A stretch of DNA of 64,000 nt from Candidatus Nomurabacteria bacterium. GTDB taxonomy: Bacteria; Patescibacteriota; Minisyncoccia; Phycocordibacterales; UBA5272. The notes beneath the pieces are model-generated. The model saw nothing but the letters and a program-made list of their open reading frames with translations, had not been told where the DNA came from and did not search any database. The translations under genes and the position numbers were made by a program. Location: the NCBI GenBank assembly GCA_029288775.1, contig JARIGQ010000006.1, positions 64,120 to 128,119 of the forward strand, given 5' to 3'. Shown piece after piece: positions 8,147 through 61,820 of this stretch (position 1 is the stretch's first letter; each line of letters starts with the position of its first letter).

Positions 8147-9718
8147 TTACAAAAAGGTGCGTATCGCGTGCTTAAGTAAAAATTCTTTCTGAATAGCAAT
8201 TTTCTTTCCAGGGTTAAAGATACCTGCTGGATCCCATGCCGCTTTAAGCTTCTTGAATACTTCTCGAGTTGCTTCATTGAACACAAATGGGAGAGCGGTG
8301 GTACGCTCTAAACCATCACCACCAACTGCACTTATTCCGCCTTTAAAGTGGGCAACAATACCACAGACCAACTCGCGAAATTCCTGCAAATCACGTTCAA
8401 AGGTTTGGCTTTTGCCATCAAAGGAGGCGGTAAGTGCTATGTGTCCGCTCCCGGCATATCCCGATAAGGTATACAGAAGTCCGGACTTAAGGAGTGCTTC
8501 ATCGAGTGCTTGTATGCAGGCGCTATAGCTATGAATGGGAACAATCAATCCTTCCGCTGAAGTAGCTATCATGTGAGCACCTTTGGTGTAGGTGGTAAAA
8601 AGGCTGTGAAGAAAAGTGTGTGAGGAGAGCTTATAGACATTTTTTTCTGGAATAGCGTATTCTTCGCACGGAAAAGGAAGTGCTTTAAGGAACATTTTAC
8701 CTTTTTTGGAAGCCTGTTCCGCATCAGTATCTTGGAATGTGGTCAAAAGATAGTAAGGGGTTTCGGGTATTTCTGGACGCAAAAGAAGCGGGTGGAATGT
8801 ATCCGTCATATGTCTGAAGGCATGGTCAAACATATACAACGCCTCTGCGTGATGATGCTTTGCGATGGTAACGGATGTTTCCAGGAGTGAATTTTCGGGG
8901 ATGGTAATAAGAAGGGTGTGGTTGTGTGGTTTTCGTGGCACTACGCGAAATGTAACGGAAGTAATGACAGCAAGAGTTCCTTCACTTCCTACTAATTGAT
9001 CTAAAAGCTGACGCGGCCCAATCGAAGTATTCCAGAGTGAATATCCGGTGGCGTCATCACTTTGTTCCCGTCGAGCCGCGCGAAGAGTTGGGCCGTGCTC
9101 AGAAAGGAGAGGGAATATCGATTGATAGATTCCCAAAAGGCGACCGCTGGGAGTGATGCCGTCTTTAATTGCATGTTCTTCACCTGAGTCGACAACTATT
9201 GTCATTCCTTCTATCCATTCACGAATGGTTCCTGCATAGAATGTACTTCGTGTAGCACTTTTGGTAGCCACAAGTCCTCCAACAGTTGCTCGACTGTCTT
9301 CGGGTTGAAGTACTGGTATTTCCAAATTCCATCCCGCAAGTTTTAATCGAAGCTCGTCGATGGTTACTCCCGCATCAACGGTAACCGTGTGATCCATCAT
9401 ATTAACGTGTCTAATATGAGAAAAATAGCGGGTCATGTCGAGAATAATTCCTTCGCCAAGCGCCCCACCGGATGCCGCAGTTATCCCGCCACACACAGTA
9501 AGGGGAATGCTATATTCTTTCGCAAAGGCGATGACATGCTTGATATCGCTTGTCGTCTTTGGGTAAATAACTGCCTGTGGACGAACTTGATATGGTGAAC
9601 CGTCTGTCGCATGCGCTTGAAGGGAGAGCTGTGAGCAATCTATGTCTCCAGAAATAATATTCGCAACATGCGAAAAAAGGGGCGGCACGCCAGAAAACAT
9701 ACTAGAGACCGTTCGCAT
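8147..9718 (-). CDS. FAD-linked oxidase (FAD_binding_4; GlcD / D-lactate dehydrogenase-like)
   Basis: PKTTSDIKHVIAFAKEYSIPLTVCGGITAASGGALGEGIILDM... FAD-binding PCMH domain and C-terminal oxidase domain. Confidence 0.65.
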   Translation of the reverse strand: MRTVSSMFSGVPPLFSHVANIISGDIDCSQLSLQAHATDGSPYQVRPQAVIYPKTTSDIKHVIAFAKEYSIPLTVCGGITAASGGALGEGIILDMTRYFSHIRHVNMMDHTVTVDAGVTIDELRLKLAGWNLEIPVLQPEDSRATVGGLVATKSATRSTFYAGTIREWIEGMTIVVDSGEEHAIKDGITPSGRLLGIYQSIFPLLSEHGPTLRAARREQSDDATGYSLWNTSIGPRQLLDQLVGSEGTLAVITSVTFRVVPRKPHNHTLLITIPENSLLETSVTIAKHHHAEALYMFDHAFRHMTDTFHPLLLRPEIPETPYYLLTTFQDTDAEQASKKGKMFLKALPFPCEEYAIPEKNVYKLSSHTFLHSLFTTYTKGAHMIATSAEGLIVPIHSYSACIQALDEALLKSGLLYTLSGYAGSGHIALTASFDGKSQTFERDLQEFRELVCGIVAHFKGGISAVGGDGLERTTALPFVFNEATREVFKKLKAAWDPAGIFNPGKKIAIQKEFLLKHAIRTFL

Positions 9719-9980: not shown

Positions 9981-12044
9981 ATGAAATCGATCGTTCCTTT
10001 TCTTACAAAACTTTATCAATATGTAACAGTGTTTTTGGTGGTTGCTTCCCCGCTCTTTTTTATTCCGGGAACCAACTTCGCTCCTGAGGTGACGTACTAC
10101 ATCACCGTTTCTGTGCTTTCTGCTATTGCGCTTCTTTCGTATGCGCTCGTAGCAGTGATTACGCGCTCCTGGCACAGTGTGTCCCGGCTTGAATTCATTT
10201 CCTACTTTACATTTGCAGGCGCTATTGTCCTCTCGGTGCTTGTGGCGGACAATCACCGCATCGCGCTTTTTGGAGATGCGTTTAATCCGCTTTCGGGAGC
10301 AGCGCTTCTTTCGCTTCCTGCAATCATGTACCTCGTGCGAACCCTTCCGGATGGAATGCGTACTAAACTCAAGTATGTTCTTGCAAGCATCCTTGGGGTT
10401 GCAACGTTCTTGTTCGTTCTTCTCATGACGATTAATGGAACGTACGTTTCAATGCTCTCTAATGTGTTCTCTGGATTCTCCACTGCGGTTTCGTTCAGTG
10501 CGTACATCGGTATTTTCGTGGTAGCAGCTTTCTTCTTTACCAAGAAAGCAAAGATTAAAATGTGGCAGAAAGGGGTGATTGTGGTTACTGCCCTTGTGTT
10601 CCTCGCATGGCTTGTCTCTTTGTCTCTTACCTATGTTCGTCCTAATTTCACTTCATCGTTCGTAGTTGCTCAAAATGTGCTTCTTCACGATGGTCTCTTT
10701 GGTATCGGTGCTGGAGATTATGTGCGCAGCTGGCAGCTCTACCGCCCTCAGGCCGTGATTACTTCTCCTTACTTCGCATACGATTTCAGCGAAGGGTTCA
10801 GTACAGCTACGACACTTGCAACAACCATCGGTATTGTCGGTCTTCTCGCATTCCTTATGCTTACGTTGTCTGCACTGTACAGCACATGGCGAAGCTATAG
10901 AAGGATACATGAAGGGGAAGATCATATGGTAACAGGCCTTCTCGCTCTTGTGCTTCTGTATTTGTCGATTATTTCATGGGTGCTTCCGCTTTCGTATGCA
11001 ATGCTTGTGGTATGGATGGTAGTAGGAGGTCTTGGTCTTGCTAAGGCACAGCTTACACAGTTCCATCCAAGTAAGAAGCTTGGCTTCTTGTTTGTTCCGC
11101 TCGCTGTACTCCTTGTTATCCATGCTGGTATGACAGTACAGAAGGCCCGTGCCTTCCTTCTCTTCGGTCAGGCTCAAATGCAAATGACGAACTCAGGTCC
11201 AGTTGATCAGGTAGGTGATTTGCTTACAAAAGCTGAATCAATTTACTCGTACGACGGATTTAATCGTGCTCATGTTGAGTACATGATTGAAAAGGAGCGT
11301 TTGCTTGTGGCGACTACAACTATGGAGCAAGCCGCTCTTCAGCAGGCGTATCTCACCAATGTACAGGCGGCTGTAGATACTGGACTTGGAGCAGTGGCTA
11401 TTAACAAGACAAATTATCAGAACTACGTATCTCTTGGAAGAGCTTACGAACTTGCAATTCCGTTCCAGAAGGATGATGCATATAAGCACGCACGAGATGC
11501 GTATGAACAAGCTACCAAGTTGTATCCTAATAATCCCTACTTGTATGTTATGCTCGCTCGCCTAGAAGCTGCGGCTGGTACCAAGGAAGGGGTTCGTACT
11601 GATTTGACTCAAGCGCTTAAGACTAAGAATAACTTTGCTGATGCGCTTTACCTTATGAGCCAGCTTGAAGCTTCAGATCAAAAGATCGATGAAGCGATTA
11701 ATTACGCAATTGAAGCTGTAAAGAATGCTCCGCAGGATCCACTCGTGTACATTCAAGCAGGTTTGCTCTTATATGGAAAGAAGGATTATCAGGATGCAGT
11801 TATTGCACTTAACACTGCTCTCTCGCTAGATCAGAATAACGCTACGATCGCATACTTCCTCGCCCTTTCGCTTCGTGATGGAGGACGTCCAGATCTTGCA
11901 AAGACCCTTGCTGACGAGCTTGCAAAGCGCGACCCAACCAATTCAGATATTCAAGCTTTGGTAAAATCTGTAGAGAATGCTTCCGCGCCAAGCTCTGTTC
12001 CAGCAGCTACCAAAGCAACCACCAAAACGTCTGTTAAGAAATAA
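9981..12044 (+). CDS. polytopic membrane protein (O-antigen-ligase-like) with C-terminal TPR repeats
   Basis: about 400 aa of TM helices followed by about 280 aa of TPR-like repeats (YELA...AYKHARDAYEQATKLYPNNPY...). Confidence 0.5.
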   Translation: MKSIVPFLTKLYQYVTVFLVVASPLFFIPGTNFAPEVTYYITVSVLSAIALLSYALVAVITRSWHSVSRLEFISYFTFAGAIVLSVLVADNHRIALFGDAFNPLSGAALLSLPAIMYLVRTLPDGMRTKLKYVLASILGVATFLFVLLMTINGTYVSMLSNVFSGFSTAVSFSAYIGIFVVAAFFFTKKAKIKMWQKGVIVVTALVFLAWLVSLSLTYVRPNFTSSFVVAQNVLLHDGLFGIGAGDYVRSWQLYRPQAVITSPYFAYDFSEGFSTATTLATTIGIVGLLAFLMLTLSALYSTWRSYRRIHEGEDHMVTGLLALVLLYLSIISWVLPLSYAMLVVWMVVGGLGLAKAQLTQFHPSKKLGFLFVPLAVLLVIHAGMTVQKARAFLLFGQAQMQMTNSGPVDQVGDLLTKAESIYSYDGFNRAHVEYMIEKERLLVATTTMEQAALQQAYLTNVQAAVDTGLGAVAINKTNYQNYVSLGRAYELAIPFQKDDAYKHARDAYEQATKLYPNNPYLYVMLARLEAAAGTKEGVRTDLTQALKTKNNFADALYLMSQLEASDQKIDEAINYAIEAVKNAPQDPLVYIQAGLLLYGKKDYQDAVIALNTALSLDQNNATIAYFLALSLRDGGRPDLAKTLADELAKRDPTNSDIQALVKSVENASAPSSVPAATKATTKTSVKK

Positions 12045-14830: not shown

Positions 14831-15244
14831 ATGGCAGCAAAGAAAATTACAAAATACGTGAAGGTGCAGATCGAGGCGGGTAAGGCTATGCCTGCGCCTC
14901 CACTTGGTCCTGCACTTGGACAAGCGGGTGTGCAGATTGGAGACTTCGTACAGAAGTTCAACGCTGCAACCAAGGATATGCAGGGACGTCTTTCAGTGAA
15001 GATTTACGTGTACGAAGATCGTACGTACGATTTCGTTATCAAGACTCCTACTGCAACTTCACTTGTGATGAAGGCTGCAAATGTAGCTAAGGGAAATTCA
15101 AAAGGTAATGCCGGAACTATTTCACAGGATAAAATTCGTGAAATCGCAGAGCTCAAATTGAAGGACCTTACTGCCCACACGGTAGAGCAGGCAATGAAGA
15201 TTATCGAAGGAACTGCACGTTCAATCGGTATCAAGGTAAAGTAA
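14831..15244 (+). CDS. rplK: 50S ribosomal protein L11
   Basis: KVQIEAGKAMPAPPLGPALGQAGVQIGDFVQKFN... canonical uL11. Confidence 0.95.
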   Translation: MAAKKITKYVKVQIEAGKAMPAPPLGPALGQAGVQIGDFVQKFNAATKDMQGRLSVKIYVYEDRTYDFVIKTPTATSLVMKAANVAKGNSKGNAGTISQDKIREIAELKLKDLTAHTVEQAMKIIEGTARSIGIKVK

Positions 15245-15255: not shown

Positions 15256-15291
15256 AAAAGCAAAAAGCCGCAATCTTGCGGCTTTTTGCTT
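15256..15291 (+). terminator. intrinsic terminator after rplK
   Basis: AAAAAGCCGCAATCTTGCGGCTTTTTGCTT hairpin + T-run; rplA/rplJ/rplL do not follow. Confidence 0.7.
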
Positions 15292-15363
15292 GAAAGCGTA
15301 GTCTAGTTCCTAGACTTGTTGCAATTCGCTAACAAGAGCCACATTTGCAAAGAGAGGGTTCTC

Positions 15364-16503
15364 ATGGAATATCCTGGTAAAGGTGCGTTTAGTAAGTCCG
15401 ACTTGCAAGATTTGATTGCCGCAGAGCGGATTAAGACGCTCCCAGGCTTCGAAGGGAAGCATGTTGGGCCTGCGTCGATTGATATTACCGTCTCAAGCGA
15501 GGAGGTATATCAAGTCTCTCAGCTTTTGCGGCCCAGCGGCAAGCGCCGCGAGAAGGTGAGAGACATGCTTAAAAGCTTGGATGCCAAGCGGGTGAGGATG
15601 GGTTCGGTCCTTGGTACTGGTCACAAGTACGTTGCTAAGGCAACCGTAAATGGTAACTTCCCCGCAGGGTTATACGGGTATAGTAATGCCAAGTCCACAA
15701 GTGGGCGCAACATGTGTCTGTGCCGGACGATCGCCGACGAGGTCGAAGGGTTCGATACCCTTGATCGCCGTTGGGAAAATTGGACGGGAGAAATTTGGTT
15801 GACGATTGAACCGTTTGTGTTCCCTATCGTTCTTACGGATAAGGAGTGTTACGCACAAATCCGCATGTTCGACGGAGATACTCGGTTCCATGAGTCCGAC
15901 CTGAAGAAGGAGTTACAAAAACGAGATTTCCTTTTTAAGCAGGACGGGAGCCGGTACAACTTAGGCGAGCTCGAGTTGACAACAGGTGACGGCACGATTT
16001 TTACCACCCTATACGCGAAGGCGGGTAGGTTGGTGGGATTCAAGGCGAAGCGCACGCTTGAGCCGCTCAATCTGACTGCGCGCGGACTTCACCCAGAAAG
16101 CCATTTCATTCCGGTCTATGCCGAAAAGGACCCCACGGATCCTGATGGGGGAATGGTCACGCTTGAGGCAGGGCATTTCTACTTGCTCTCGACCAACGAG
16201 GTTCTTGATGTTCCAGAGCATCTTTGCGCAGAGCTGGTTGCACTCCATCCGCGCCTTGGATTGTTCTTCTCCCATTTTGCTGGGTTCTTCGATCCGGGAT
16301 TTAAGGGAGTACCTACCCTTGAAGTGACACCCATCATCAGGACTACTTTGCGTCACCGTGAGGCCGTCGGGTGCTTCCGTTATGAGCGGATGCGTTCAAA
16401 GACGGAGTCATACGCGGTTGTCGGTAACTACAGTGGGCAAAAGAGAACCACGCTTCCGAAGCAGTTTCATCTGCCCAGAGATTGGCACGATGCCATGGCC
16501 TGA
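15364..16503 (+). CDS. long-form 2'-deoxycytidine 5'-triphosphate deaminase-like protein (PF06559-like, dUTPase-fold C-terminus)
   Basis: C-terminal HFAGFFDPGFKGVPTLEV matches the HYAGFFDPGF signature of long DCD proteins; 52-55% GC; AGAGAGGG SD 5 nt before the ATG at 15364. Confidence 0.55.
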   Translation: MEYPGKGAFSKSDLQDLIAAERIKTLPGFEGKHVGPASIDITVSSEEVYQVSQLLRPSGKRREKVRDMLKSLDAKRVRMGSVLGTGHKYVAKATVNGNFPAGLYGYSNAKSTSGRNMCLCRTIADEVEGFDTLDRRWENWTGEIWLTIEPFVFPIVLTDKECYAQIRMFDGDTRFHESDLKKELQKRDFLFKQDGSRYNLGELELTTGDGTIFTTLYAKAGRLVGFKAKRTLEPLNLTARGLHPESHFIPVYAEKDPTDPDGGMVTLEAGHFYLLSTNEVLDVPEHLCAELVALHPRLGLFFSHFAGFFDPGFKGVPTLEVTPIIRTTLRHREAVGCFRYERMRSKTESYAVVGNYSGQKRTTLPKQFHLPRDWHDAMA

Positions 16504-16556
16504 AGAGGCAGTAAGAGCTCCGAGAGGGGCTCTTTCTTTTTTGCTACACTGAGCGT

Positions 16557-16976
16557 ATGAAATTGAAAGTGAAAAGATTACATCCACAGGCTAAACTTCC
16601 TACACGTGCACACCATGATGATGGAGGTTTAGATATTTATTGTTGTGAAGAAGTAACGCTTCCTCCACATACTACTGTAAAAATTCCTACAGGCATTGCC
16701 TATGAATTGCCGGTTGGTTATTGTGCATTTGCATGGGATAAGTCTTCTATTGGCGCGAAAGGATTAAAAACACTTGGAGGCGTATTGGATGCGGGATACC
16801 GCGGGGAATTATTCATCCCGATGAGAAATCTCACTAATGAAAGTTACACGTTTGAAGCAGGACATAAAATCGCACAGATGGTAATTCAAAAAGTAGAACT
16901 CTGGGAGGTAGAAGAAGCGCACGAACTTTCTGAAACCGCTCGCGGAGAAGGAGGATTTGGAAGTACAGGGAAGTAA
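16557..16976 (+). CDS. dut: dUTP diphosphatase
   Basis: GVLDAGYRGEL and RGEGGFGSTGK motifs; AT-rich host-like composition. Confidence 0.85.
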   Translation: MKLKVKRLHPQAKLPTRAHHDDGGLDIYCCEEVTLPPHTTVKIPTGIAYELPVGYCAFAWDKSSIGAKGLKTLGGVLDAGYRGELFIPMRNLTNESYTFEAGHKIAQMVIQKVELWEVEEAHELSETARGEGGFGSTGK

Positions 16977-17423
16977 TTATCTTTTACTTAGCTCTCTTAT
17001 TGTGCCTATATATAACTGCTCGTAGGAAGTACCTTGAATGTTCTTATCTTTGGGGCCCAGGTGTACTTCTGTTTTTTCATCAATCCCCATCTTCATAAAT
17101 TGAGGCAAGATTTGTAGCACTTCTTGTCGTACCTTTTCATTAAATGCAAATCCTGCACCTTTGTAGCAATAGAGTCTATTTTCCTGCTTAAGAAAAAATC
17201 CGCGTATGTGTTCTTCTAAAAAACTGTGTAGAGAAGACTCCTCAACCCATCCTTCATCTTTGAACCATTCGATATGTGAACTTTGAATATTAGGAGGAGC
17301 AACTTCAAGCGCTCCATCTTTTATACAGAACATAATTCTCGATGTGTGGAAATCAATATCTTCAGGCCTTGTTTTGAGGAAATTTAAATCTGGAGCATCT
17401 TTCATGTCTAAAGTATAAAGCAC
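16977..17423 (-). CDS. hypothetical protein (host-like composition)
   Basis: 148-aa AT-rich ORF between dut and the GC-rich block; start may be the internal Met (MKDAPD). Confidence 0.4.
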   Translation of the reverse strand: MLYTLDMKDAPDLNFLKTRPEDIDFHTSRIMFCIKDGALEVAPPNIQSSHIEWFKDEGWVEESSLHSFLEEHIRGFFLKQENRLYCYKGAGFAFNEKVRQEVLQILPQFMKMGIDEKTEVHLGPKDKNIQGTSYEQLYIGTIRELSKR

Positions 17424-17471
17424 TTAAAGAAAAAGGCCCGCCAAGGGGCGGGCCTCGACTCGTTGACCTGA

Positions 17472-18533
17472 TCAGTCTTCGAGTGAAAGGATGAATTCGA
17501 CCATCTCCTGGTCACCACGGCAGCCCACGAGGAGTTGCTCCTTGGAGACCAGCTTGGTGAAGTCTCCTTCGTTGGGGATGGTTTTTCGCAGCTGGGTCCA
17601 GACGCGGGAGTAATTCCCCCACGAACCGTCGGGGTCGCCGTCCTCACGTGGGCGCACCGGGTGCTGCAGGGGAGACATGTGCCCATTCCCTTTCAGGTCT
17701 TGGGCCAGTTCGAGATCCTTCGCGAGTGCCCGGACGCCGTTATGGGTCAGATAGCTGGTCCGCGCGCATTTGCCGGCGGAGGCCCATGCGAGAACTCCTT
17801 CTTTCGGTTCCTCGGCACGGTCTTCCGGACGTATGTACGGAAGGTGCCATTGCCCGATTTGGAGTTCCGTGGGCTTGCTGTTCATCATCGCGTGAGCGAT
17901 GACGATGCCGAAGTCGTTGGCTTCAGGTTGCGCGTGTTCGCTGTTGCGGAGGCCGAAGAAGTTTCTCCAGTGCGTAGCAGTCACGATGACCGTGTGGAAC
18001 GAGTAGGGCTCGATCACGCGGTTGGCATGCTGCTTGTGGAGGCCTTGGTCCTGCTCGAACAGGAAGTGGGAGAGTCCGTACTTCCGGACGAGCTCGTCCA
18101 CCTGTTCGCACAACCATGCACCCTTGGCTGCCATGCCAGCTTTCTCGCTTGCTGCCAGGATTTCCTTGTGGCCGCCAGCCAGGTAGAACGCCTGGATGAC
18201 GGCGATGTCCCGGCCGACCAGCCAGTTGGCTACAGCCTTCTTCTGGTCGGAATCCGACAGGGATTCGCCGGCCTGCATCCCGGCCTTGTTGACCCCGAAC
18301 GAGTTGGGGACGTAAGGCCGTTCAAGCACGGCGATCAGCCGCTTGATCGTGGGCATGGCGCGCGAGCTTGCCGAGTTGCGCGAAAAGCGCGTGTGGGTGT
18401 TGAACTCTGCGAGGTAGGGTCGAGGAAACTCGACTTCCACCGAGCAGATTCGCGATCCGCGAAAAATGCTGTCGCAAATCATCTTTGCGGTGGCGCTTAC
18501 CTCGCGGTAAACGGACGGCGGGGTATAATCCAT
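17472..18533 (-). CDS. unknown 353-aa protein of the GC-rich deoxynucleotide island
   Basis: about 60% GC; AAGGAGAT SD 5 nt upstream; own terminator. The opposite-strand 345-aa ORF is an R/V/G-rich shadow. No TS, ThyX, radical-SAM or MTase motifs recognised. Confidence 0.5.
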   Translation of the reverse strand: MDYTPPSVYREVSATAKMICDSIFRGSRICSVEVEFPRPYLAEFNTHTRFSRNSASSRAMPTIKRLIAVLERPYVPNSFGVNKAGMQAGESLSDSDQKKAVANWLVGRDIAVIQAFYLAGGHKEILAASEKAGMAAKGAWLCEQVDELVRKYGLSHFLFEQDQGLHKQHANRVIEPYSFHTVIVTATHWRNFFGLRNSEHAQPEANDFGIVIAHAMMNSKPTELQIGQWHLPYIRPEDRAEEPKEGVLAWASAGKCARTSYLTHNGVRALAKDLELAQDLKGNGHMSPLQHPVRPREDGDPDGSWGNYSRVWTQLRKTIPNEGDFTKLVSKEQLLVGCRGDQEMVEFILSLED

Positions 18534-18738
18534 GAGATCTCCTTTTCCGTGATGGGGTGGAATGAGCTGTAACCAGCTTATCTAAATGTACAAGTTTGGA
18601 ATAGCTTTTACTAGATTGACAGAACGCGTGTTCTGTTCGTTTGTGGAGTTTCTTTCTTTTACATACACTCGGATAAAAGTTCTTTCTCTCAAGAAGGAAC
18701 ATCCTATTAACTATGCGCCTGCGGGCGAGGAGAGTGAC

Positions 18739-19437
18739 ATGGCCAAGGCTATTATTGCGATCGAAGGGTCTGACGGCGCCGGCAAGGAGACGCAGGCGGG
18801 ACTGCTTATGAAGTTCCTCCAGTCGCAGGGATATACCGTGGGGACGGAATCATTTCCCCGTTACAACAAATCGGTCGGCGGTATCTTTTTGTATGATGCC
18901 CTTAAGGGACCGGAGAAGGAGAAGTACGCCTTCTCGAAGCTTGATCCATATGACGCGAGCAAGCCCTACGCCATGGATCGTTCGGAGTCCCGCGGCATCA
19001 TCGAAGATCTCGTCGCGAAGCACGATGTGGTTGTCTTCGATCGTTACGTTGAGTCGAACTTGCTCCACCAAGGGGGCAAGCTCGCTACACCTGAAGAGCG
19101 TGTAGAATACGCGAATTGGTTGTTCCGGGAAGAATACGAAGGCAAGCGCGGTATCCCGCGCCCTGACTTCGTGATCTACCTCAAGATCCCGTTCTGGCTT
19201 TCGCGCGCCCGTGCGGAGCGGCGGTCGGCAAACGGCGGCCCCGCACTTGATGCGGTCGAGTCCGACATGGATTACGTGCGTAAGGGCCACGAAGGCGGCA
19301 TCTTCTATGCCGAGCATTTCGGTTGGGAAGTAGTGGAAGGCTTGGAGGACAAGCGCGAGCTCACCCCGGATGAAGTTCACCAGAAGGTGATCCGCCAGAT
19401 TACCCCTCGTCTTCTCGAAAAAGGGATCGAGATCTGA
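18739..19437 (+). CDS. thymidylate-kinase-like P-loop kinase (P-loop present, TREPGGT motif absent)
   Basis: IIAIEGSDGAGKETQ P-loop, DRYVESNLLHQGG (DRY/lid-like); GAGGAGAG SD before the ATG at 18739. Confidence 0.6.
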   Translation: MAKAIIAIEGSDGAGKETQAGLLMKFLQSQGYTVGTESFPRYNKSVGGIFLYDALKGPEKEKYAFSKLDPYDASKPYAMDRSESRGIIEDLVAKHDVVVFDRYVESNLLHQGGKLATPEERVEYANWLFREEYEGKRGIPRPDFVIYLKIPFWLSRARAERRSANGGPALDAVESDMDYVRKGHEGGIFYAEHFGWEVVEGLEDKRELTPDEVHQKVIRQITPRLLEKGIEI

Positions 19438-19557
19438 AGTAACACTATGGAAACCGGCCCACGGGGCCGGTTTTTTCTTTTCTCGACACATAAGGGAATG
19501 ATGTGATAGGGTGTCGTTAGTACATCCGTACTTTTTCTTTTGCGAAGGAGAAGATTC

Positions 19558-20127
19558 ATGAAGGGCAAGTTCATCGTCTTTGGCGGGGTGAAGTCCCCCT
19601 GGCCCACCATCGAGGTGGTTCAGGAACACGTTCGTTCGAGCGGTGTCGAAACCGTGATCACCAGAGAACCTGGAGGTACGCCCTTTGCGGAGAATATCCG
19701 CAAGCTCCTCCTGGAAGGTGATCATGGTGGCGATTACGGAATCGTGCGAAGCCTCACTCGTGCTGCGCGTATCGAACATGAGCGCAAGGTTGTGGAACCG
19801 GCGCTCGAGCGGGGAGAGCATGTGCTCTGCGATTCCACCGACTATACCAAGTTCCACGAATGGGACACGGTCGTTTCCGAGCAGAGCTTGATCCATTCAG
19901 GTTTCGATCGCGAATGGTTGGTTGGCAAACCGACAATGCTCATCCTGTTCACTCCCTCCGAGATGGATCCGCGGCTCAGGACCATCTTCAACAATGTGGG
20001 GTACACGATGAACACAGGATTCATTTCCTGGGAGACTCTTGTGTACTACGTGGATCCCGGCGACATCCATTCGGTGGAAACGATGTTGGAAGCCTTGAAG
20101 GACCATCTTGCTTTCGAAATCGCCTGA
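19558..20127 (+). CDS. thymidylate-kinase-like protein with degenerate P-loop (TREPGGT present)
   Basis: ITREPGGTPFAENIRKLL dTMP-binding motif but FGGVKSPWPT in place of the G-x-x-G-x-GK-S/T P-loop; AAGGAGAAG SD before the ATG at 19558. Confidence 0.5.
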   Translation: MKGKFIVFGGVKSPWPTIEVVQEHVRSSGVETVITREPGGTPFAENIRKLLLEGDHGGDYGIVRSLTRAARIEHERKVVEPALERGEHVLCDSTDYTKFHEWDTVVSEQSLIHSGFDREWLVGKPTMLILFTPSEMDPRLRTIFNNVGYTMNTGFISWETLVYYVDPGDIHSVETMLEALKDHLAFEIA

Positions 20128-20203
20128 TCACTTCTTGGCCACAGCCCCGCTTGCGCGGGGCTGTTTTCTTTTTAATACTCAGCAAATAAGGTAGTATAGA
20201 TGC

Positions 20204-21904
20204 ATGAATTCCTATTCGGTTATCTATGAGGCGCTTGTAGACCTCTGCAAAAAACAGGGACTTATTGCCTCGTTTTCGCTTGATCAGCCCGACTTGGCGG
20301 AGCATGGTGATTATGCGACCAATATCGCTTTTACGCTTTCTAAATCACTCGGCAAATCTCCAAAAGAAACTGCAGACACCATTGCCATAGAGTTAGCAGC
20401 TTCACTTGAAGACACAATTGAAAAGATAGAGGTTGCTGGCCCTGGATTCATTAATTTCTTTTTGAAGGACGATGTTCGTACGGATGAAGCCGAAGCAGTT
20501 GCGGTAAGCGATATAGTAAATGAGAAAGGAAAAGGGAGCGTGCTTGTGGAATATACCGATCCAAATTGCTTCAAGGTATTTCATATCGGCCACTTGATGG
20601 CAAATACAATTGGTGAAGCAATAGCACGGCTCTATGAAGCAAGTGGGTATGACGTCCTGCGTGTATGTTATCCCTCCGATATTGGGTTAAACGTTGCCAA
20701 GGGTGTGTGGGGTGTTATGCAATTAGCCTCCGAAAAGCCCGATGAAAGTGCTTCGCTTAAAGAAAAAGTTGCTTTCTTAGGGAAAGCTTACGCGTATGCT
20801 CATCAAAAGTATGAAGAAAGCGAAGAAAATAAGCAGGCGATTGTAGAGGTGAACAAAGCTATCTATGCCGGAAACGACGCACAAGTAATGGGGGTGTATG
20901 CGGAAGGTCGGGCGCTTTCTTTGGAATATTTTGAAACCCTGTACGCAATGCTTGGAACAAAGTTTGATGCATACGTATATGAATCTGAAGTTGCAGATCC
21001 AGGAAAGGTGATTGTGAAAGCGTACATGGGAAGCATTTTTGAAGAATCTGAAGGAGCAATTGTATATAAAGGGGAGCAAGACGGATTACATACCAGAGTG
21101 TTTATTAATTCTGTGGGACTCCCTACATATGAGACCAAAGATATTGGCAACTACGAAAGGAAACTTTCTCTTCTTCCAAATGCGGATAGATATGTGGTAG
21201 TAACCGCCCAGGAGCAGGCCGAATATTTTAAGGTGATCAACAAAGTGGAAGAAAAACTCCACCCTGAGCTTACCGGAAAGCTGGTGCATATTAGTCATGG
21301 CATGATGCGTCTTGCATCCGGTAAAATGTCATCCCGAACAGGGAACGTAATTGGTGGGGAAGATTTGATTGATAAGATCAAGGAAGTGCTTTCTGCGCGA
21401 TTGGAAGATATGAAGGTAGAGGAAATAGATAAACCAAAACTTCTCAACGATATTGCAGTTGGTGCAGTGAAGTTTTCCATACTTAAGCAAGCACCGGGAA
21501 AAGATACGGTATTTGATTTTGAAAAATCTATCTCGTTTGAGGGGGACTCCGGTCCGTATTTGCAGTATACGCACGCTCGTATATGTGCGCTCTTGGATCG
21601 GGCGGAGGAGGTGGGGATTGATATTGAAAGCTATGCAATAGAACATCCAGAACGAGAACTTGAACAGGTAATCATTGGTTATAATCAAGCACTTGAAAAG
21701 GCATGTACGGAACTTGCCCCTCAATCAATTTTGCAACATCTTCTTAAGCTTACGCGCGCATTTAATAATATGTACGGCCGCGAGCAGATCATTCGCGATG
21801 ATAAGGAATTAAGTGCGTATTATATGATGCTTACGCAAGCGACAAAAAACATTTTAGGTCACGGACTTTCGACGCTTGGTATTGTGGCTCCGGAGAGGAT
21901 GTGA
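20204..21904 (+). CDS. argS: arginine--tRNA ligase
   Basis: 566 aa, HIGH-region FHIGHLMANTIGEAI and C-terminal DALR anticodon-binding region. Confidence 0.9.
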   Translation: MNSYSVIYEALVDLCKKQGLIASFSLDQPDLAEHGDYATNIAFTLSKSLGKSPKETADTIAIELAASLEDTIEKIEVAGPGFINFFLKDDVRTDEAEAVAVSDIVNEKGKGSVLVEYTDPNCFKVFHIGHLMANTIGEAIARLYEASGYDVLRVCYPSDIGLNVAKGVWGVMQLASEKPDESASLKEKVAFLGKAYAYAHQKYEESEENKQAIVEVNKAIYAGNDAQVMGVYAEGRALSLEYFETLYAMLGTKFDAYVYESEVADPGKVIVKAYMGSIFEESEGAIVYKGEQDGLHTRVFINSVGLPTYETKDIGNYERKLSLLPNADRYVVVTAQEQAEYFKVINKVEEKLHPELTGKLVHISHGMMRLASGKMSSRTGNVIGGEDLIDKIKEVLSARLEDMKVEEIDKPKLLNDIAVGAVKFSILKQAPGKDTVFDFEKSISFEGDSGPYLQYTHARICALLDRAEEVGIDIESYAIEHPERELEQVIIGYNQALEKACTELAPQSILQHLLKLTRAFNNMYGREQIIRDDKELSAYYMMLTQATKNILGHGLSTLGIVAPERM

Positions 21905-21944: not shown

Positions 21945-22140
21945 ATGGCGATGACGGGAGTAATCACCCCTGAGCTTCGGGAAGAAAGTCGAAAGGCAAG
22001 TAGAACCCAGTGAATGAGGTCCAAGAAGGGAAACCGACGAGGACAAATCAAGGTGGTACCACGGGAATCTTTTGAAACTCGTCCTTGGAAAGCAATATCA
22101 AACATTGCTTCTCAAGGACGAGTTTTTATTTTTAATTACA
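21945..22140 (+). promoter_or_regulatory. T-box riboswitch leader with terminator, upstream of ileS
   Basis: AAUCAAGGUGGUACCACGGG (22046-22066) matches the T-box consensus AGGGUGGNACCGCG; followed by the terminator CTCGTCCTTGG...CCAAGGACGAG + T-run (22078-22140); promoter TTGCAC-16-TAGTAT at 21910-21937. Confidence 0.55.
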
Positions 22141-22145
22141 AACAT

Positions 22146-25100
22146 ATGAACGATACACCCAAATCAATAAACGAAAAGGAACTAGAAACGCTTGCGTTCT
22201 GGAAAGAACATGCGATTTTTGAAAAGTCGGTGGAAACGCCAGCCGGGGATACACCCAAAGGATCCTTTTCATTTTATGATGGTCCACCATTTGCAACAGG
22301 TACTCCGCATATGGGGCATATTTTGGCTGGAACAATTAAGGATGCAATTCCGCGGTACCAAACGATGAAAGGTAATTCCGTCCGCCGTGTATGGGGATGG
22401 GATTGCCATGGGCTTCCAATTGAAAATTTGATTGAAAAGAAGCTCGGTCTTCAGTCAAAGAAAGATATTGAAAGCTTCGGTATAGATAAGTTTAATCGTG
22501 ACGCGTTTGAGTCAGTGCTTCAATATGAAGAGGAATGGAAGAAGGCAATTCCTCGATTGGGTCGTTTTGTAGATATGGAGCATCCCTACAAGACGATGGA
22601 TTGGAGTTATACCGAAAGCGTATGGTGGTCATGGAAAACTTTGTATGAAAAGGGGCTTGCTTACGAAGGGAACAAAATGATGCATATTTGTCCTCGTTGC
22701 GAGACACCGCTTGCACAATCTGAAGTAGGACTTGAATATCATGATGTTACTGACCTTTCGGTGACGGCAAAATTTGAGCTAGTGGATGAACCGGGAACAT
22801 ATGTACTTGCGTGGACAACAACGCCGTGGACTCTTCCGGGGAATACGGCACTTGCTCTAAAAGAGGATGCTCACTATGTAAAGGTTTCCATTGAAGGAAT
22901 GGGAGGGCTGTATGTGCTCGCTCAAGAAAGAATAGAAGAGGTGCTTAAAGAAATGAAGTACGAAGTGCGGGATACTTTTGTTGGCAGTTCACTTATCGGT
23001 AAATCATATAAGCCTGTATTCCCTTATTTTATAGACAAGAATATTGAAAACAAGGAACAGATCTGGAAGATTTGGCATGCAGAATTCATTACTCTTGATA
23101 CTGGAACTGGTATCGCCCATGAAGCTCCTGCTTTTGGTGCCGAAGATATGGATCTTGCAAAAGCACACACCATTCCCGTGATCAAGCATGTGAAGATGGA
23201 CGGAACGTTTACTGAGGATGTGACAGATTTTGCTGGCATGAAAGTGAAGGTTAAGGACGATACGCAATCTGCTGATATTGAGATCATTAAATATTTGGCA
23301 CACAACGGTTTGCTTTTCGAAAAGCATAAAATCGTCCACTCCTATCCACTCTGCTGGCGATGCAAGACTCCGCTTCTTAATTACGCGACATCGTCTTGGT
23401 TTGTGGATGTGCCAAAGATGAAGGAAAAGCTTTTAAATGAAAATCAAAAAATTGGTTGGACTCCAGACCATATTCGCGAGGGGCGATTTGGGAGATGGCT
23501 TGAAGGCGCACGGGAATGGGCCGTATCACGCTCGCGTTATTGGGGTGCGCCGCTTCCTGTGTGGAAGTCCGCTTCAGGTGACGTGAAAGTCATTGGCAGC
23601 TTAAAGGAGCTTGCGACCCTTTCTACAAAAAAGTCGAAGAATACTTATTTTGCAATTCGACACGGTGAAGCAAAGAGTAATATCGATAATATGCTCGATA
23701 GTTATGGTGATAAGAATAATCATCTGACGGATTTGGGTAAGGAACGCGCACGACATGCGGGACATTTTGCAAAAGAACAGGGAATAGATCTTATTATTCA
23801 TTCACCACTTCTACGTACGAGGGAAACGGCAGGCATCATTCATGAAGCGTGCGGCGCCTCCACAGTGGAAGATGTTCGACTGCAGGAATTCCAAGGAGGA
23901 ATCTTTTCTGGAAAACCTATTCACGAGCTCCGTTCATTTCAGCATTCCTCGACTTTCACCTTTGACTCCAAAGTGGAAAATGGAGAATCATATCGCGAAG
24001 TTATGCATCGTGTCATGTCACTTCTTCATGAGTGCGAAACAAAGTACAAAGGAAAGAAGATTCTTTTTGTGACTCATGGTTCTCCACTCTGGATGCTTCA
24101 AGCGGGAGCAGAATTAAAGACCGATGAGGAGCTTTATGGGGAAATTGCTTCCCATGAAGATACGTCTCCTGCCCACGCGCACGTCATTCCGATTAAGCCG
24201 CTTCTTGTGCCTCGAGATGAAACTGGTGCAATTAACCTTCATCGCCCGTATATTGATGAAGTTGAGTTAGAGATAGAAGGGAAGCTGTATAGGCGTATTG
24301 GAGATGTCTTTGATTGCTGGTATGAATCAGGCTCCATGCCGTTTGCGCAACTCCATTACCCCTTTGAGAATAAAGAGGTGTTTGATAAAAATTTCCCGGC
24401 AGACTTTATTGCTGAAGGGTTGGATCAGACCCGTGGGTGGTTCTATTCGCTGATTAATCTAGGGGTGGGCCTGTTTGATAAGGCTCCTTATAAGCATGTC
24501 ATTGTAAATGGTTTGGTGATGGCTGAAACTGGGCAAAAGCTCTCTAAAAGTGAAAAAAATTATACCGATCCCATGGAGCTTGTGGCGCGCTATGGAGCGG
24601 ATGCGGTGCGTTATGCTTTGCTTTCTTCACCAGTTGTAAAAGGGGAGAATGTTCAGTTTGGTGATAAAACAGTAGAAGATGTATATAAGAAGGTTATTCA
24701 GCGTTTGGAAAATGTCGTGTCTCTTTATGAAATGAATAAAGATACCTCCTACGAAGCAAACCCTGCTTCTCGTAATGTGCTTGATAGATGGATCGTCTCT
24801 CGTGTACATGAGCTCGTAGCAAGGGCAACTAAAGGATATGATACGTATACGCTTGATGAAGCAACCTACCCGCTTGATCAGTTCGTAGATGATTTGTCTG
24901 TATGGTATGTACGTCGCAGTCGAGATCGTCTTAAGGGGGATACCGGGGAAGAGGACAAAAGACTCTCTTATGAAACACTCACGTATGTATTGATCACGGT
25001 TGCTAAAGTGATTGCTCCCGTTATGCCATTTTTAGCGGAACGTTTGTATCAAACGGTGTGTACAGCTCGAGAGTCGGTGCACCTTGAAAGCTGGCCAGAG

Positions 25101-25574
25101 AGCGGAGTAATAGAGGAAGATGTTCTTACAGAAATGAGAAAAGTGCGGGAGGTTGTAACTCAAGCGCTTGCCAAGCGTACCGAAAGTAAGATTGCTGTCC
25201 GTCAACCGCTCGCGAAACTTACTGTTAAAGAAACAATCCATAAGGAGTATGAAGCAATTCTTCTTGATGAACTTAATGTTAAAGAGCTTGCAATCGATTC
25301 TTCGCTTGCCGAGCCATGTGTACTCGACACTGCACTTACTGAGACGCTCAAGCAAGAAGGCGACGTACGTAATCTTATGCGTGCAATTCAGGACGCTCGC
25401 AAGGAAAAGGGTCTTACCCCTAAGGATACAGTGACGCTGAGTGTTTCGTATACTGTACCAGATGCATTTAGGGACATGCTGATGGCTACTTGTCGTGTAG
25501 TTGCAATTGAAGAAGGTGAAGGTCCGTACGGAGCGGAAACATCTCAAGGAAGAATAACCTTCGATCTTCGTTAA
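22146..25574 (+). CDS. ileS: isoleucine--tRNA ligase, eukaryote-like type 2, with an inserted histidine-phosphatase (PGAM-like) domain
   Basis: FYDGPPFATGTPHMGHILAGTIKD is nearly identical to the human IARS motif; WTTTPWTLPGNTALAL editing domain; KLSKS; about 190-aa insert (RHGEAKSN...LLRTRETA...VTHGSPLW) between the catalytic core and ...GDVFDCWYESGS. Confidence 0.9.
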   Translation: MNDTPKSINEKELETLAFWKEHAIFEKSVETPAGDTPKGSFSFYDGPPFATGTPHMGHILAGTIKDAIPRYQTMKGNSVRRVWGWDCHGLPIENLIEKKLGLQSKKDIESFGIDKFNRDAFESVLQYEEEWKKAIPRLGRFVDMEHPYKTMDWSYTESVWWSWKTLYEKGLAYEGNKMMHICPRCETPLAQSEVGLEYHDVTDLSVTAKFELVDEPGTYVLAWTTTPWTLPGNTALALKEDAHYVKVSIEGMGGLYVLAQERIEEVLKEMKYEVRDTFVGSSLIGKSYKPVFPYFIDKNIENKEQIWKIWHAEFITLDTGTGIAHEAPAFGAEDMDLAKAHTIPVIKHVKMDGTFTEDVTDFAGMKVKVKDDTQSADIEIIKYLAHNGLLFEKHKIVHSYPLCWRCKTPLLNYATSSWFVDVPKMKEKLLNENQKIGWTPDHIREGRFGRWLEGAREWAVSRSRYWGAPLPVWKSASGDVKVIGSLKELATLSTKKSKNTYFAIRHGEAKSNIDNMLDSYGDKNNHLTDLGKERARHAGHFAKEQGIDLIIHSPLLRTRETAGIIHEACGASTVEDVRLQEFQGGIFSGKPIHELRSFQHSSTFTFDSKVENGESYREVMHRVMSLLHECETKYKGKKILFVTHGSPLWMLQAGAELKTDEELYGEIASHEDTSPAHAHVIPIKPLLVPRDETGAINLHRPYIDEVELEIEGKLYRRIGDVFDCWYESGSMPFAQLHYPFENKEVFDKNFPADFIAEGLDQTRGWFYSLINLGVGLFDKAPYKHVIVNGLVMAETGQKLSKSEKNYTDPMELVARYGADAVRYALLSSPVVKGENVQFGDKTVEDVYKKVIQRLENVVSLYEMNKDTSYEANPASRNVLDRWIVSRVHELVARATKGYDTYTLDEATYPLDQFVDDLSVWYVRRSRDRLKGDTGEEDKRLSYETLTYVLITVAKVIAPVMPFLAERLYQTVCTARESVHLESWPESGVIEEDVLTEMRKVREVVTQALAKRTESKIAVRQPLAKLTVKETIHKEYEAILLDELNVKELAIDSSLAEPCVLDTALTETLKQEGDVRNLMRAIQDARKEKGLTPKDTVTLSVSYTVPDAFRDMLMATCRVVAIEEGEGPYGAETSQGRITFDLR

Positions 25575-32374: not shown

Positions 32375-32423
32375 CCTTAAACAGGCAGGATAAGGACAGT
32401 TGCAACTTACCAAAAGGGTCCGT

Positions 32424-32804
32424 ATGGAAACCGAGTCCAAGACCCCGGAGGCATTCTGTGGGGTCATCGCTGCCAAGTATGTCAGAGGCGAGGGAATAGA
32501 TGTGGTGCTTGCTGAAAGTGAGTATCGCATCCACATTGCTTCATCCAAGGATGAAGGCTTGAAATACCTCCCTGAAGGAGAGCGACGGCATTTTGTGGTG
32601 GAAGGTGGGCGGATCATTGCTGTTTATATCCGGCCTCGCATCCAGCTACTGAAGCTTGCCGGGGCTAGACTTCCTCTCCAGGACAGTCTCCTGTGGTCTC
32701 TGAAGCCCATTTATCCACGCGGTATTGGCAGGCTTCAGAGAAAAACAGGGAAGAGGAGTCGCAGGCTGCGCCTGTATCTTTTGCAGCATGATCTCCAGAG
32801 ATGA
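32424..32804 (+). CDS. GC-rich small hypothetical protein (coding status uncertain)
   Basis: 127-aa ORF in a 52% GC block with a weak AAAGGG SD and strong terminator (32806-32830); could alternatively be a structured RNA. Confidence 0.3.
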   Translation: METESKTPEAFCGVIAAKYVRGEGIDVVLAESEYRIHIASSKDEGLKYLPEGERRHFVVEGGRIIAVYIRPRIQLLKLAGARLPLQDSLLWSLKPIYPRGIGRLQRKTGKRSRRLRLYLLQHDLQR

Positions 32805-39888: not shown

Positions 39889-40185
39889 TCAATCCTTGGT
39901 GTAGCTCGGAGGGTCGGTATTCTTCTCCGGCCAATGAACGGTGTAGCCGCGTTCTTTCCACCACTTTTCCGCAATAGGAGTGATGTAAGTGTCCCACTGC
40001 CGAACGAGGCCATACACCCTTTGTTTATCCACCTCGCGCATTACTTCGAAGCAGTCTGGGTGGTTACGCATGTTATTGTTTCTTATCCACTCCAATCGAA
40101 GCTGTTCGGCGTACTCTCTCCATTCTCGATCGTGCTGACGGAATTCGGCTTCCTGTGTTTGCTGCGTGGAGGCTTCAGTTTTCAT
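39889..40185 (-). CDS. GC-rich small hypothetical protein next to the ssrA 3' end
   Basis: 98 aa, about 55% GC, AAGGAGTT SD 6 nt upstream, own terminator at 39852-39882. Confidence 0.4.
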   Translation of the reverse strand: MKTEASTQQTQEAEFRQHDREWREYAEQLRLEWIRNNNMRNHPDCFEVMREVDKQRVYGLVRQWDTYITPIAEKWWKERGYTVHWPEKNTDPPSYTKD

Positions 40186-40299
40186 CGCTTAACTCCTTAT
40201 CTTAATCTGGAAGCACTCTAGTTCTTTTGATGGCGATTGTCAAAAGCTGCCTTTCGATTTCTCCACAAATGAAAAAACTCCCGCGGGAGTTTTTTCATT

Positions 40300-40686
40300 T
40301 GTGGAGATGGGCGGAATCGAACCGCCGTGTATATCGGTATGAAGCATGCATCTACTGTGCGTAGTTTGCTTTGTATGCCTGTATGCCATAGAAGCAAACG
40401 AAAGCGACATACAGGGTGCATGGATTAGTTCATTGCGCACCTCATGCGGAGTGCGCAACTACATCTGCTGTCATTATGCCGTACTCCTTCCCGCAGATGC
40501 GAAAGGGGACGACACCAGGTCGGCGTAAATTACGCGAACGCTGGAACAAGTCCATTCACGTAAGGTGATGGAATTGCCGCTGCAGTTTTGTTTGCAACAT
40601 GGATGGCAGAATGTTAACGAGTACTCTGCCTATCTCGGCATAGCACATACGTCATGGTCGATATATCAAAGCCAAAGATCATCCCC
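40300..40686 (-). ncRNA. ssrA: tmRNA (ssrA)
   Basis: minus strand 5'-GGGGAUGAUCUUUGGCUUUGA..UCGACC and 3'-GGCGGUUCGAUUCCGCCCAUCUCCA with a G3:U70 acceptor pair; putative tag ORF GCA AAC AAA ...GCG UUC GCG UAA (ANKTAAAIPSPYVNGLVPAFA); starts 2 nt after the smpB stop. Confidence 0.75.
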
Positions 40687-43461: not shown

Positions 43462-43534
43462 GCATCCATAGCTCAGTTGGTAGAGCCGTCGTCTTATACA
43501 CGACTGGTCCCTGGTTCGAGTCCAGGTGGATGCA
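43462..43534 (+). tRNA. tRNA-Ile with anticodon UAU (AUA-decoding)
   Basis: cloverleaf folds cleanly: acceptor GCATCCA/TGGATGC, D GCTC/GAGC, anticodon stem GTCGT/ACGAC with loop cTTATAc, T-loop TTCGAGT; CCA not encoded. Confidence 0.75.
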
Positions 43535-43561
43535 CAAAAGTACGTTTGCTATACTGTGTGC

Positions 43562-48980: not shown

Positions 48981-49159
48981 GAGTATCTCCTTCTGCCCGA
49001 GAGGGCGGTTGGTGTGAAAATGCGAATGAGGGTGTCCAGTTTTCTTTTGGTCTTGCAACCAAAAACCAAAAGGACTACCTTTTATTATTTTGCGCCATTT
49101 TTTTGACTTTGTCAATTTTTCTAATAATTATGTAAAGACACTGAAAATGGTATGTCAGT

Positions 49160-52415: not shown

Positions 52416-52524
52416 AGGTCTATTGACTTTTTATTAATAGTATGCTATATTTCAGATGGTATGTTTGGGCAATTCCGCCCGTTTCGTCAACCGGCGCATT
52501 AAGCGCCACAACCAGGAGTGTGTC

Positions 52525-59853: not shown

Positions 59854-60044
59854 TAGGGGTCTTCGCGAGCTTCAGGGTAACTTGTAGCAAACGGAGAATT
59901 TCAGTAGTAAATTGTCAAAGCAAGAGCAGCTGCGGAAGATAGATCAGAAAACTCTCAAATGTTTCTGATTACAAACGTCTTCTGATGACGCTGCAAACAT
60001 TACACACATTGTGCATTTTTGTTTTTCTTTTGTCACACTCTATT

Positions 60045-61592
<1,548 letters not shown>

Positions 61593-61820
61593 TGAAATCG
61601 GTCAACATACCTATTTAATAGGGTGTATGATTCTTGTCGAACTATTGTTTTCAATAGAGGAATTGATAGTGATCCTTAACACTATCCGCGTTACAGCGAA
61701 AGGTAACACAAGTCGCGCAAGCGCTAGAGTGTGACAAAAGAAAGATGTGAAATCTCAATGTGTGTAATGTAATGAAATAGCCCCGATCGCTACGCGATCG
61801 GGGCTTCTCCGTTTTCGGAT

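Follow-up and report, generated by a model that had tools for sequence, protein, structure and literature searches.

A probable thymidylate synthesis locus with exchanged gene cassettes around a resident dUTPase gene in a Candidatus Nomurabacteria contig

The genes between rplK and argS in a 64,000-nt window of a Candidatus Nomurabacteria genome (contig JARIGQ010000006.1, positions 64,120-128,119) were analyzed, and this block is probably the organism's thymidylate (deoxythymidine triphosphate, dTTP) synthesis locus, with an ordinary function and with swapped cassettes around a resident dUTPase gene, dut. On this reading the function is ordinary thymidylate synthesis and it is the evolutionary behaviour that is unusual: two variable slots around dut, a hallmark of Shine-Dalgarno (SD) motifs and high G+C content (GC), a rearranged ThyX, and a Tmk-like protein without a P-loop. 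All six proteins of the block fall into dTTP-pathway families, save one unannotated small protein. Judged from family membership and gene context, Dcd would deaminate dCTP to dUTP, the resident Dut would hydrolyse dUTP to dUMP, a 353-aa (amino acid) ThyX-family protein (ThyX-353) would methylate dUMP to dTMP, and Tmk would phosphorylate dTMP to dTDP. Because the methylation step would use methylene-tetrahydrofolate and reduced flavin, dihydrofolate reductase (DHFR) would not be needed. Bacteria of the candidate phyla radiation (CPR) are thought to scavenge nucleotides, but dTTP still has to come from dCTP or dUMP, and the locus shows the dTTP synthesis route of the whole clade.

Gene content and predicted pathway

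The features of the block are listed below, with GC3 denoting the GC of third codon positions. Comparison loci from relatives are numbered with an L (L001, L002, L164, etc.), and all of them come from metagenome assemblies.

14831-15244, + strand: rplK (uL11), conserved left anchor, identified through the Pfam annotation of its L001 and L002 orthologues; GC3 0.43, no SD
15258-15291: rplK terminator, a perfect inverted repeat (16+16 nt) flanked on either side by T/A runs; left edge of slot 1
15364-16503, + strand: dcd, long-form dCTP deaminase, 379 aa; slot 1 cassette; GC 0.528, GC3 0.60
16513-16545, + strand: dcd intrinsic terminator (hairpin and T-run 16513-16534)
16557-16976, + strand: dut, dUTPase of 139 aa; resident and vertically inherited, with one variable slot on either side; GC 0.42, GC3 0.28, no SD
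16977-17423, - strand: hypothetical gene, 142-148 aa (142 aa if started at the 17405 ATG); accessory gene of slot 2, AT-rich (GC 0.37)
17433-17456, - strand: intrinsic terminator of the thyX-like gene, 10-bp stem with 8 G-C pairs, T-run
17472-18533, - strand: predicted ThyX-family thymidylate synthase, 353 aa (ThyX-353); GC 0.602, GC3 0.76
18534-18738: divergent intergenic region between thyX (-) and tmk (+), with both SD motifs inside; both promoters presumed here
18739-19437, + strand: tmk, dTMP kinase of mycobacterial type, 232 aa; GC 0.567, GC3 0.69
19449-19480, + strand: tmk intrinsic terminator (hairpin and T-run 19449-19475)
19558-20127, + strand: tmk2, Tmk-like protein, 189 aa; GC 0.546, GC3 0.67
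20141-20172, + strand: tmk2 intrinsic terminator (hairpin and T-run 20141-20164); right edge of slot 2
20204-21904, + strand: argS, conserved right anchor

An earlier sequence-only reading of this DNA had proposed a long-form dCTP-deaminase-like protein, and the Pfam profile search confirmed it (PF06559 79.9 bits, PF22569 67.2 bits, PF22769 95.8 bits; all over the cut-off). The two-domain DCD_N and DCD_C architecture of the long-form family (PF06559/PF22569) is present over the full length, the HxAGFFDPGF motif and the catalytic Glu of the dUTPase-like fold (the Glu of TLE) are kept, and the best PDB relative, 2r9q from Agrobacterium, aligned over its full length (E 8e-25). In contrast to that family, the window Dcd stays well under the NCBIfam equivalog cut-off (148 vs. 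283 bits). To our knowledge the long-form family is named by homology, and we know of no assay. Relatives with 40-84% identity and a named source all bear the label Patescibacteria, Paceibacterota or Gracilibacteria, and the Dcd proteins found at the same position in relatives are 25-52% identical to that of the window. Dut is a standard trimeric dUTPase (PF00692 and TIGR00576 over the cut-off). The 142-aa hypothetical protein had no match in Pfam, NCBIfam, PHROG or PADLOC; it has 163 homologue clusters and an AlphaFold2 model with a mean predicted local distance difference test score (pLDDT) of 95.8, for which the PDB fold search returned no significant match and weak gelsolin-like hits only (TM-score ≤ 0.51). 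Its gene is not present in the same slot of L002 and L164.

The long ThyX form and the kinase pair

The 353-aa protein had been set down as unknown and transferase-sized, and the block as devoid of thymidylate synthase (ThyA or ThyX motifs). Neither statement survived, since sequence comparisons and the structural model predict that this protein is a ThyX-family flavin-dependent thymidylate synthase (FDTS). It matched PHROG 85 ('thymidylate synthase') with an E-value of 2.5e-41 and TIGR02170 with 9e-6, most of its homologues have a precomputed match to Pfam Thy1 (PF02511), and a profile of 28 homologues retrieved Thermotoga maritima ThyX from the PDB (E 1e-10) in two pieces whose order is swapped. 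The AlphaFold2 model (pLDDT 91) was compared to the PDB with Foldseek, and the top 50 hits were all ThyX or PolB, with probabilities of 0.99-1.0 and target TM-scores of ~0.45-0.58. The claimed coherence of the dU/dT nucleotide pathway thus stood, as genes for dCTP→dUTP→dUMP→dTMP→dTDP are present, and the step left open in it fell away: with a ThyX-family protein filling the gap, the route is closed. The predicted dUMP→dTMP activity of ThyX-353 (with FAD, NAD(P)H and CH2-THF) is supported only indirectly, by the interchangeability of its gene, which in sister genomes is replaced in situ by canonical ThyX or by ThyA and DHFR.

Three segments of ThyX-353 could be equated with T. maritima ThyX (TM0449; native numbering, with a TM0449 sequence that matches the pieces shown by the PDB search):

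Residues 30-59 = TM0449 62-91: ThyX motif, gapless; H47 = H79, S56 = S88, R58 = R90
Residues 127-218 = TM0449 109-201: R172 = R147, N191 = N169, R196 = R174
Residues 245-290 = TM0449 20-63: R258/S260 = R28/S30; G284-H285...H291 = GH53xxPFEH

The equivalents of TM0449 S30, H53, H79, S88, R90, R147, N169 and R174 are kept in 28/28 aligned homologues, and T55 corresponds to an invariant Ser. The ThyX motif, RHRx7S(xR), reads T46-H47-x-x7-S56-x-R58. Aligned alone, this N-terminal segment matches weakly and its register is weak; the one stretch aligned by Pfam (residues 33-216 on profile positions 62-185) has the same register. With the first 74 residues as query, the PDB search returned a spurious TALE-repeat hit only, and hhalign returned the C-terminal segment alone. 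The α1-α2 segment (GHxxPFEH), canonically located between β2 and β3, comes after the C-terminal helices, and ~100 residues are inserted after the ThyX motif. With the canonical FDTS (PF02511; TM0449, PBCV-1 A674R) the protein shares the fold (Foldseek probability 1.0), the conserved ligand-residue equivalents and a neighbourhood that includes dut and tmk but lacks DHFR; it differs in length (353 vs. ~220 aa), in segment order and by the insertion, and the TM-score to canonical ThyX is ~0.5.

The long form occurs in Paceibacteria (47-83% identity), in Solirubrobacterales and other Actinomycetota (43-47%), and in 432 IMG/VR contigs and 1034 GenBank phage records (32-43%), where its annotation varies between thymidylate synthase, ThyX-like and hypothetical. 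Full-length similarity extends to the PHROG 85 phages (N4-like Pseudomonas ZC03/ZC08, Erwinia phiEaP8, Myxococcus Mx1 and Brevundimonas phages; 32-37% identity over 87-95% of the protein), whereas the window protein sits in the cellular clade formed with Paceibacteria and Actinomycetota. As direct donors of thyX, neither a phage (best viral relatives 33-43% identical) nor a recent actinomycetotal source (43-47%) was supported. No solved structure of the long form appeared in the PDB fold search, no experimental characterisation of it was found in the searchable literature, and literature searches on permuted ThyX, or on ThyX in Parcubacteria, gave nothing relevant. ThyX-353 is thus a large, structurally uncharacterised ThyX form common to >1000 phage records; since ThyX is a drug target, such variants matter.

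Two thymidylate-kinase-like proteins had been proposed, and both do match PF02223 (57 bits for Tmk, 39 bits for Tmk2), although the second is without P-loop, DR motif and LID. Tmk has all motifs intact (P-loop GSDGAGKET of the GxxGxGKxT type, FDRYVESN with DRY, and the Arg-rich LID RARAERRS) in common with the mycobacterial-type dTMP kinases of NCBIfam NF005923 (E 8e-33), but it scores under the equivalog cut-off (114 vs. 193 bits) and is paired with a P-loop-less paralogue, a pairing for which we know of no described counterpart. An intact tmk of this type adjoins thyX in most other Paceibacteria. In Tmk2, FGGVKSPWPT stands where EGxxGxGKT is expected, and the same loss is seen in P0122-P0124. 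An alignment with three full-length relatives of 42-46% identity also showed CDS in place of CDR and a deleted LID segment in 4/4 members, with TREPGGTP and PALERG kept and new motifs common to the group. The gene follows an intact tmk and precedes argS in L164 and L166 as well. From these sequences, Tmk2 is predicted to be catalytically dead, and because its P-loop is absent it should not be filed as a kinase despite the PF02223 match. It looks like a conserved non-catalytic paralogue rather than a product of random decay and possibly binds dTMP; a role as dTMP-binding regulator is speculation.

Long antisense open reading frames (ORFs) lie over thyX (17535-18572, + strand, 345 aa) and over tmk and tmk2 (18850-19896, - strand, 348 aa), a consequence of the high GC. 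A gene caller that takes the longest ORF would choose the latter and lose both real kinase genes.

Cassette exchange at a syntenic locus

The gene order secE-nusG-rplK-(dcd-dut)-thymidylate synthase-tmk-argS-ileS recurs in L001, L002, L008, L013, L018-L023, L164 and L166, and rplK is 89-92% identical (aa) to that of relatives. The locus is therefore syntenic across Paceibacteria, with two hypervariable slots, one for dcd and one for thymidylate synthase and tmk. The usual neighbour downstream of rplK is rplA (uL1); in the window and in all syntenic Paceibacteria loci it does not adjoin rplK, where the dTTP genes are found instead (this concerns the position beside rplK, the rest of the window not having been searched for rplA).

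Replacement of whole genes is seen between L002 (614-kb contig) and L164 (179-kb contig), which have 89-92% DNA identity across the flanks and dut. This identity ends after the rplK terminator, is back at dut, ends again, and is back at the start of argS, with the breakpoints in intergenic positions. The comparison of L002 with L164 by gene (aa identity) is as follows:

nusG, rplK: 100%
dut: 98%
argS, ileS: 97%
dcd: 26%
thymidylate synthase: ThyX-353 (reverse strand) vs. ThyX-452, a tandem Thy1 protein of 452 aa (forward strand)
tmk: 54%; tmk2 in L164 only

Other relatives (dut 58-78%, rplK 86-93% identical) have ThyA (PF00303) in slot 2, joined in L169, L172 and L177 by DHFR (PF00186) and in L178 by tmk. 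Several relatives pair DHFR with ThyA and none pairs it with ThyX-353, in agreement with the established pattern of the two synthase types. Since L177 combines a Dcd 71% identical to that of the window with ThyA and DHFR where the window has ThyX, variation in one slot is independent of the other. Elsewhere in the window neither thyA nor folA, nor a relic of these or of ThyX-452, HIT or deoxyribosyltransferase cassettes, was found. Neighbour-joining trees agree with a separate history of the cassettes: the window groups with L002 in the trees of ileS, argS and nusG+rplK+SIMPL (bootstrap 1.0, 0.995 and 0.83), but with L001 in the thyX tree (bootstrap 1.0).

Accessory genes were also observed in the slots, namely a nucleoside 2-deoxyribosyltransferase in L166 (3951-4388), and a HIT-family protein (9165-9605) and a GC-rich 238-aa protein without Pfam match (10903-11619) in L001.

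In the arrangement that we propose, slot 1 would hold dcd and slot 2 a thymidylate synthase solution with a kinase and sometimes accessory genes, around the conserved dut. Each cassette gene would be its own transcription unit with SD and terminator and with the composition of a GC-richer genome. A cassette would give way to a divergent version or a non-homologous counterpart (ThyX-353, tandem ThyX-452, ThyA and FolA), most likely through homologous recombination in rplK, dut and argS, the conserved flanking genes. Between rplK and argS there is no integrase or transposase gene, no flanking or att-like repeats were found (those present are short and imperfect), and the nearest tRNAs are at 43462 and 62671, with no tRNA insertion site at the block; the marks of a classical mobile island are thus absent.

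The earlier claim of a horizontally acquired module was upheld as far as lateral exchange around a resident dut is concerned, by unrelated genes in near-identical genomes, by the conflict of the thyX tree, and by composition, Arg/Lys usage and SD motifs, but not as a new island. Close orthologues of housekeeping genes at syntenic positions in related CPR genomes had been named as an observation that would speak against acquisition, and this was half borne out: because syntenic orthologues exist in many Parcubacteria, we see recurrent replacement in a conserved housekeeping locus and not a new island in a naive site.

Non-orthologous displacement of thyA/folA by thyX was reportedly described by Myllykallio et al. 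in 2002 and by Stern et al. in 2010. Alternative, unrelated dTMP solutions scattered by lateral transfer, with DHFR travelling with ThyA and not with ThyX, are common to that process and to the locus studied here. The difference is that here the alternatives occupy one fixed chromosomal slot, differ between ~90%-identical flanks, and are accompanied by swaps of dcd and tmk as well. Lateral acquisition of thyA by Patescibacteria has been published (PMC12455944). At a single chromosomal address, interchangeable modules (two ThyX types or ThyA with DHFR) provide the essential dTMP step. The locus is thereby an experiment of nature in non-orthologous gene displacement, resolved almost to the strain level.

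Composition, translation signals and alternative explanations

Recomputed GC of the four GC-rich genes (0.528-0.602) agreed with the 52-60% noted before, as did their interleaving with the AT-rich dut and one AT-rich hypothetical gene (0.42 and 0.37). The background had been put too low at ~38%, the actual values being 0.444 for the whole window and 0.41-0.47 around the block. It also held for all four that each has its own SD and terminator. A G+C-rich hairpin with a T-run lies 3' of each gene, and the SD reads AAGGAG before thyX and tmk2 and GAGGAG before tmk, each 5-7 nt from the ATG (5 nt for thyX), the dcd motif being weaker (GAGGG, 5 nt from the ATG). A promoter consensus scan of the thyX/tmk intergenic region (18534-18738) found none. 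The neighbouring SIMPL-family gene, secE, nusG, rplK, dut, argS and ileS have no SD and a GC3 of 0.28-0.43; dut has a -10-like hexamer near its ATG, and both traits would fit a leaderless dut.

Across loci, SD-like 5-mers precede 29/41 cassette genes vs. 1/65 host genes (Fisher p 2e-15; a cruder SD scan of all loci was unreliable and left unused, as mis-set start codons brought the high-GC Actinomycetota positive controls out near zero). Cassette GC3 exceeds host GC3 in 19/23 Paceibacteria loci and in 17/18 low-GC loci (Wilcoxon p 3e-4), with a median excess of +0.075 to +0.10 across loci and of ~+0.3 in the window, and ThyA, DHFR and ThyX-452 cassettes have the same excess. Cassette genes are depleted in A and T at third positions (A3, T3) alike and use about as much Arg as Lys, whereas host genes have 2-4.5x more Lys than Arg; this is the composition of a GC-richer background, and an origin in GC-richer donors that use SD motifs would account for the signature. 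Three other causes of the GC3 excess were considered and rejected. Codon adaptation to high expression does not fit the low GC3 of rplK and nusG. T avoidance in T-making genes does not fit an A3 depletion equal to that of T3, with Arg in place of Lys. GC-biased gene conversion at a hotspot of recombination does not fit dut, since this central anchor is the most AT-rich gene.

GC3 is also raised (0.55-0.63) in the ORFs at 48315-49115 (-), 52456-53004 (+), 39889-40185 (-) and 32400-32804 (+). Most of them have a plausible start preceded by an AAGGAG-type SD, and none has a Pfam hit or an NCBIfam match near the cut-off. With the dTTP cassettes they may form one class of foreign-looking genes.

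The window contains a complete 16S rRNA gene (60042-61592, + strand; model positions 1-1533 of RF00177 in the Rfam alignment), whose 3' end reads GGAUUAAUUCAAUG (consensus GGAUCACCUCCUUU). With no CCUCC anti-SD in this tail, the 16S cannot pair with an SD, and most window genes are without such a motif. The anti-SD status refers to the window 16S alone, as 0/246 comparison loci include a 16S 3' end. According to Tsurumaki et al. (2022, PMC9297842), about half of Parcubacteria have lost the anti-SD, and these overlap with the group that lacks uL1. The absence of CCUCC, of rplA beside rplK and of host SD motifs is shared with that group, and the window fits this uL1-lacking, anti-SD-lacking subgroup; a canonical SD in a subset of genes is not reported in the passages of that paper found by term search, but is seen here in the dTTP cassettes and a few GC-rich ORFans. 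The puzzle is thus that a canonical SD is kept before one class of genes although the 16S has lost its anti-SD.

We raise, as a tentative and rather doubtful idea, that the dTTP cassettes and the few GC-rich ORFs form a distinct gene pool that is actively exchanged among anti-SD-lacking Parcubacteria and in which SD and high GC are selected. If so, either the ribosomes would read SD-led mRNAs without the 16S tail, or there would be a hidden source population with canonical ribosomes; conflict-driven diversifying selection would act on thymidylate synthesis in these episymbionts, for instance because phages or hosts inhibit Dcd, the synthase or Tmk, and the P-loop-less Tmk paralogue would be the regulatory dTMP sensor of the module. 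It is unlikely that the genes are instead a vertically inherited housekeeping cluster, with GC3 and SD kept by selection (for example because dTTP genes are translated or expressed in a special way) and lateral exchange unimportant. Such inheritance would agree with the class-wide synteny, with the SD and GC3 excess even in the distant L018-L023 (ThyX 47-50% identical), with the single Paceibacterial ThyX-353 clade in the neighbour-joining tree (branch supports not read out), and with an SD more conserved between window and L002 than the remaining thyX leader. It is contradicted by the whole-gene replacements of L002/L164 inside ~90%-identical flanks, by ThyA+FolA, ThyX-452 and ThyX-353 sharing one slot among close relatives, by the conflict of thyX and host trees at 100% bootstrap, by a resident 16S without the anti-SD to read an SD, and by the low GC3 of the highly expressed rplK and nusG, with which codon adaptation fails. 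That GC-rich foreign fragments were joined into an AT-rich contig during assembly or binning is scarcely credible. The comparison is built on metagenome assemblies and composition shifts sharply at gene boundaries, but the same interleaving recurs in many independent assemblies (NCBI, ENA, JGI, Logan), including the 614-kb and 179-kb contigs, duplicates come from different samples (L002/L003/L004, L164/L165), and composition turns AT-rich again at dut in every case.

The sequence-only reading had also likened the block to thymidine-hypermodification or nucleotide-reprogramming clusters of phages, in which an unknown transferase and special kinases would yield a modified dU/dT nucleotide, and to dNTP-depletion defence. 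The former is very improbable: the ThyX-353 family is indeed frequent among phages (1034 GenBank records and 432 IMG/VR contigs, 33-43% identity) and a second, odd kinase-like protein is present, yet the supposed transferase is a predicted ThyX in which the dUMP and flavin ligands are conserved, the Pfam search of all six proteins gave no aGPT-Pplase, 5-HMUDK or hydroxymethylase match at E ≤ 1, Tmk holds all dTMP-kinase motifs, sister genomes fill the slot with ordinary ThyA and DHFR or canonical ThyX, and no DNA polymerase, glycosyltransferase or other modification gene lies nearby. An anti-phage island with the dCTP deaminase as effector has next to no likelihood; a dCTP deaminase is present and the region is hypervariable, as defence islands are, but 0/6 proteins matched a PADLOC model past weak P-loop noise (nothing for Dcd, Dut, ThyX, Tmk2 or the small hypothetical protein; E 6e-5 and 7e-3 for Tmk), Dcd is the long housekeeping-type form (PF06559; PDB 2r9q), and a complete biosynthetic pathway sits at a class-wide syntenic locus. 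Several points weigh against a dTTP synthesis locus with swapped cassettes, the reading we prefer. ThyX-353 is 0.4 bit short of the Pfam Thy1 gathering score (24.4 vs. 24.8 bits). TM0449 R78 is replaced by an invariant Thr, R80 is variable and Y91 is replaced by Ala; the changes of R78 and Y91 leave room for an altered specificity, e.g., that of a PolB-like UMP methylase. The trees are neighbour-joining trees on simple distances, and all comparison genomes are metagenome assemblies. Lastly, as the Paceibacterial ThyX-353 proteins form one clade and the named Dcd relatives above 40% identity are all CPR, exchange appears to occur among CPR, which makes the persistent GC/SD signature hard to explain by import alone.

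Elsewhere in the window, ileS (22014-25574, + strand) carries an inserted histidine-phosphatase domain (His_Phos_1; RHGE...HSPLLRTRET, residues ~545-640), and its orthologues in L001, L002 and L164 have the same Pfam pattern. The spacer between the 16S rRNA gene and tRNA-Ile(GAU) is unusually long (61593-62670, 1.08 kb) and contains two GC-rich minus-strand ORFs (61821-62234 and 62293-62625) without family match. A tmRNA gene is located at 40299-40686 (- strand; RF00023, 92 bits), and a tRNA-Ile with anticodon UAU, uncommon in bacteria, in which AUA is usually read by a lysidine-modified CAU tRNA, at 43462-43535 (+ strand).

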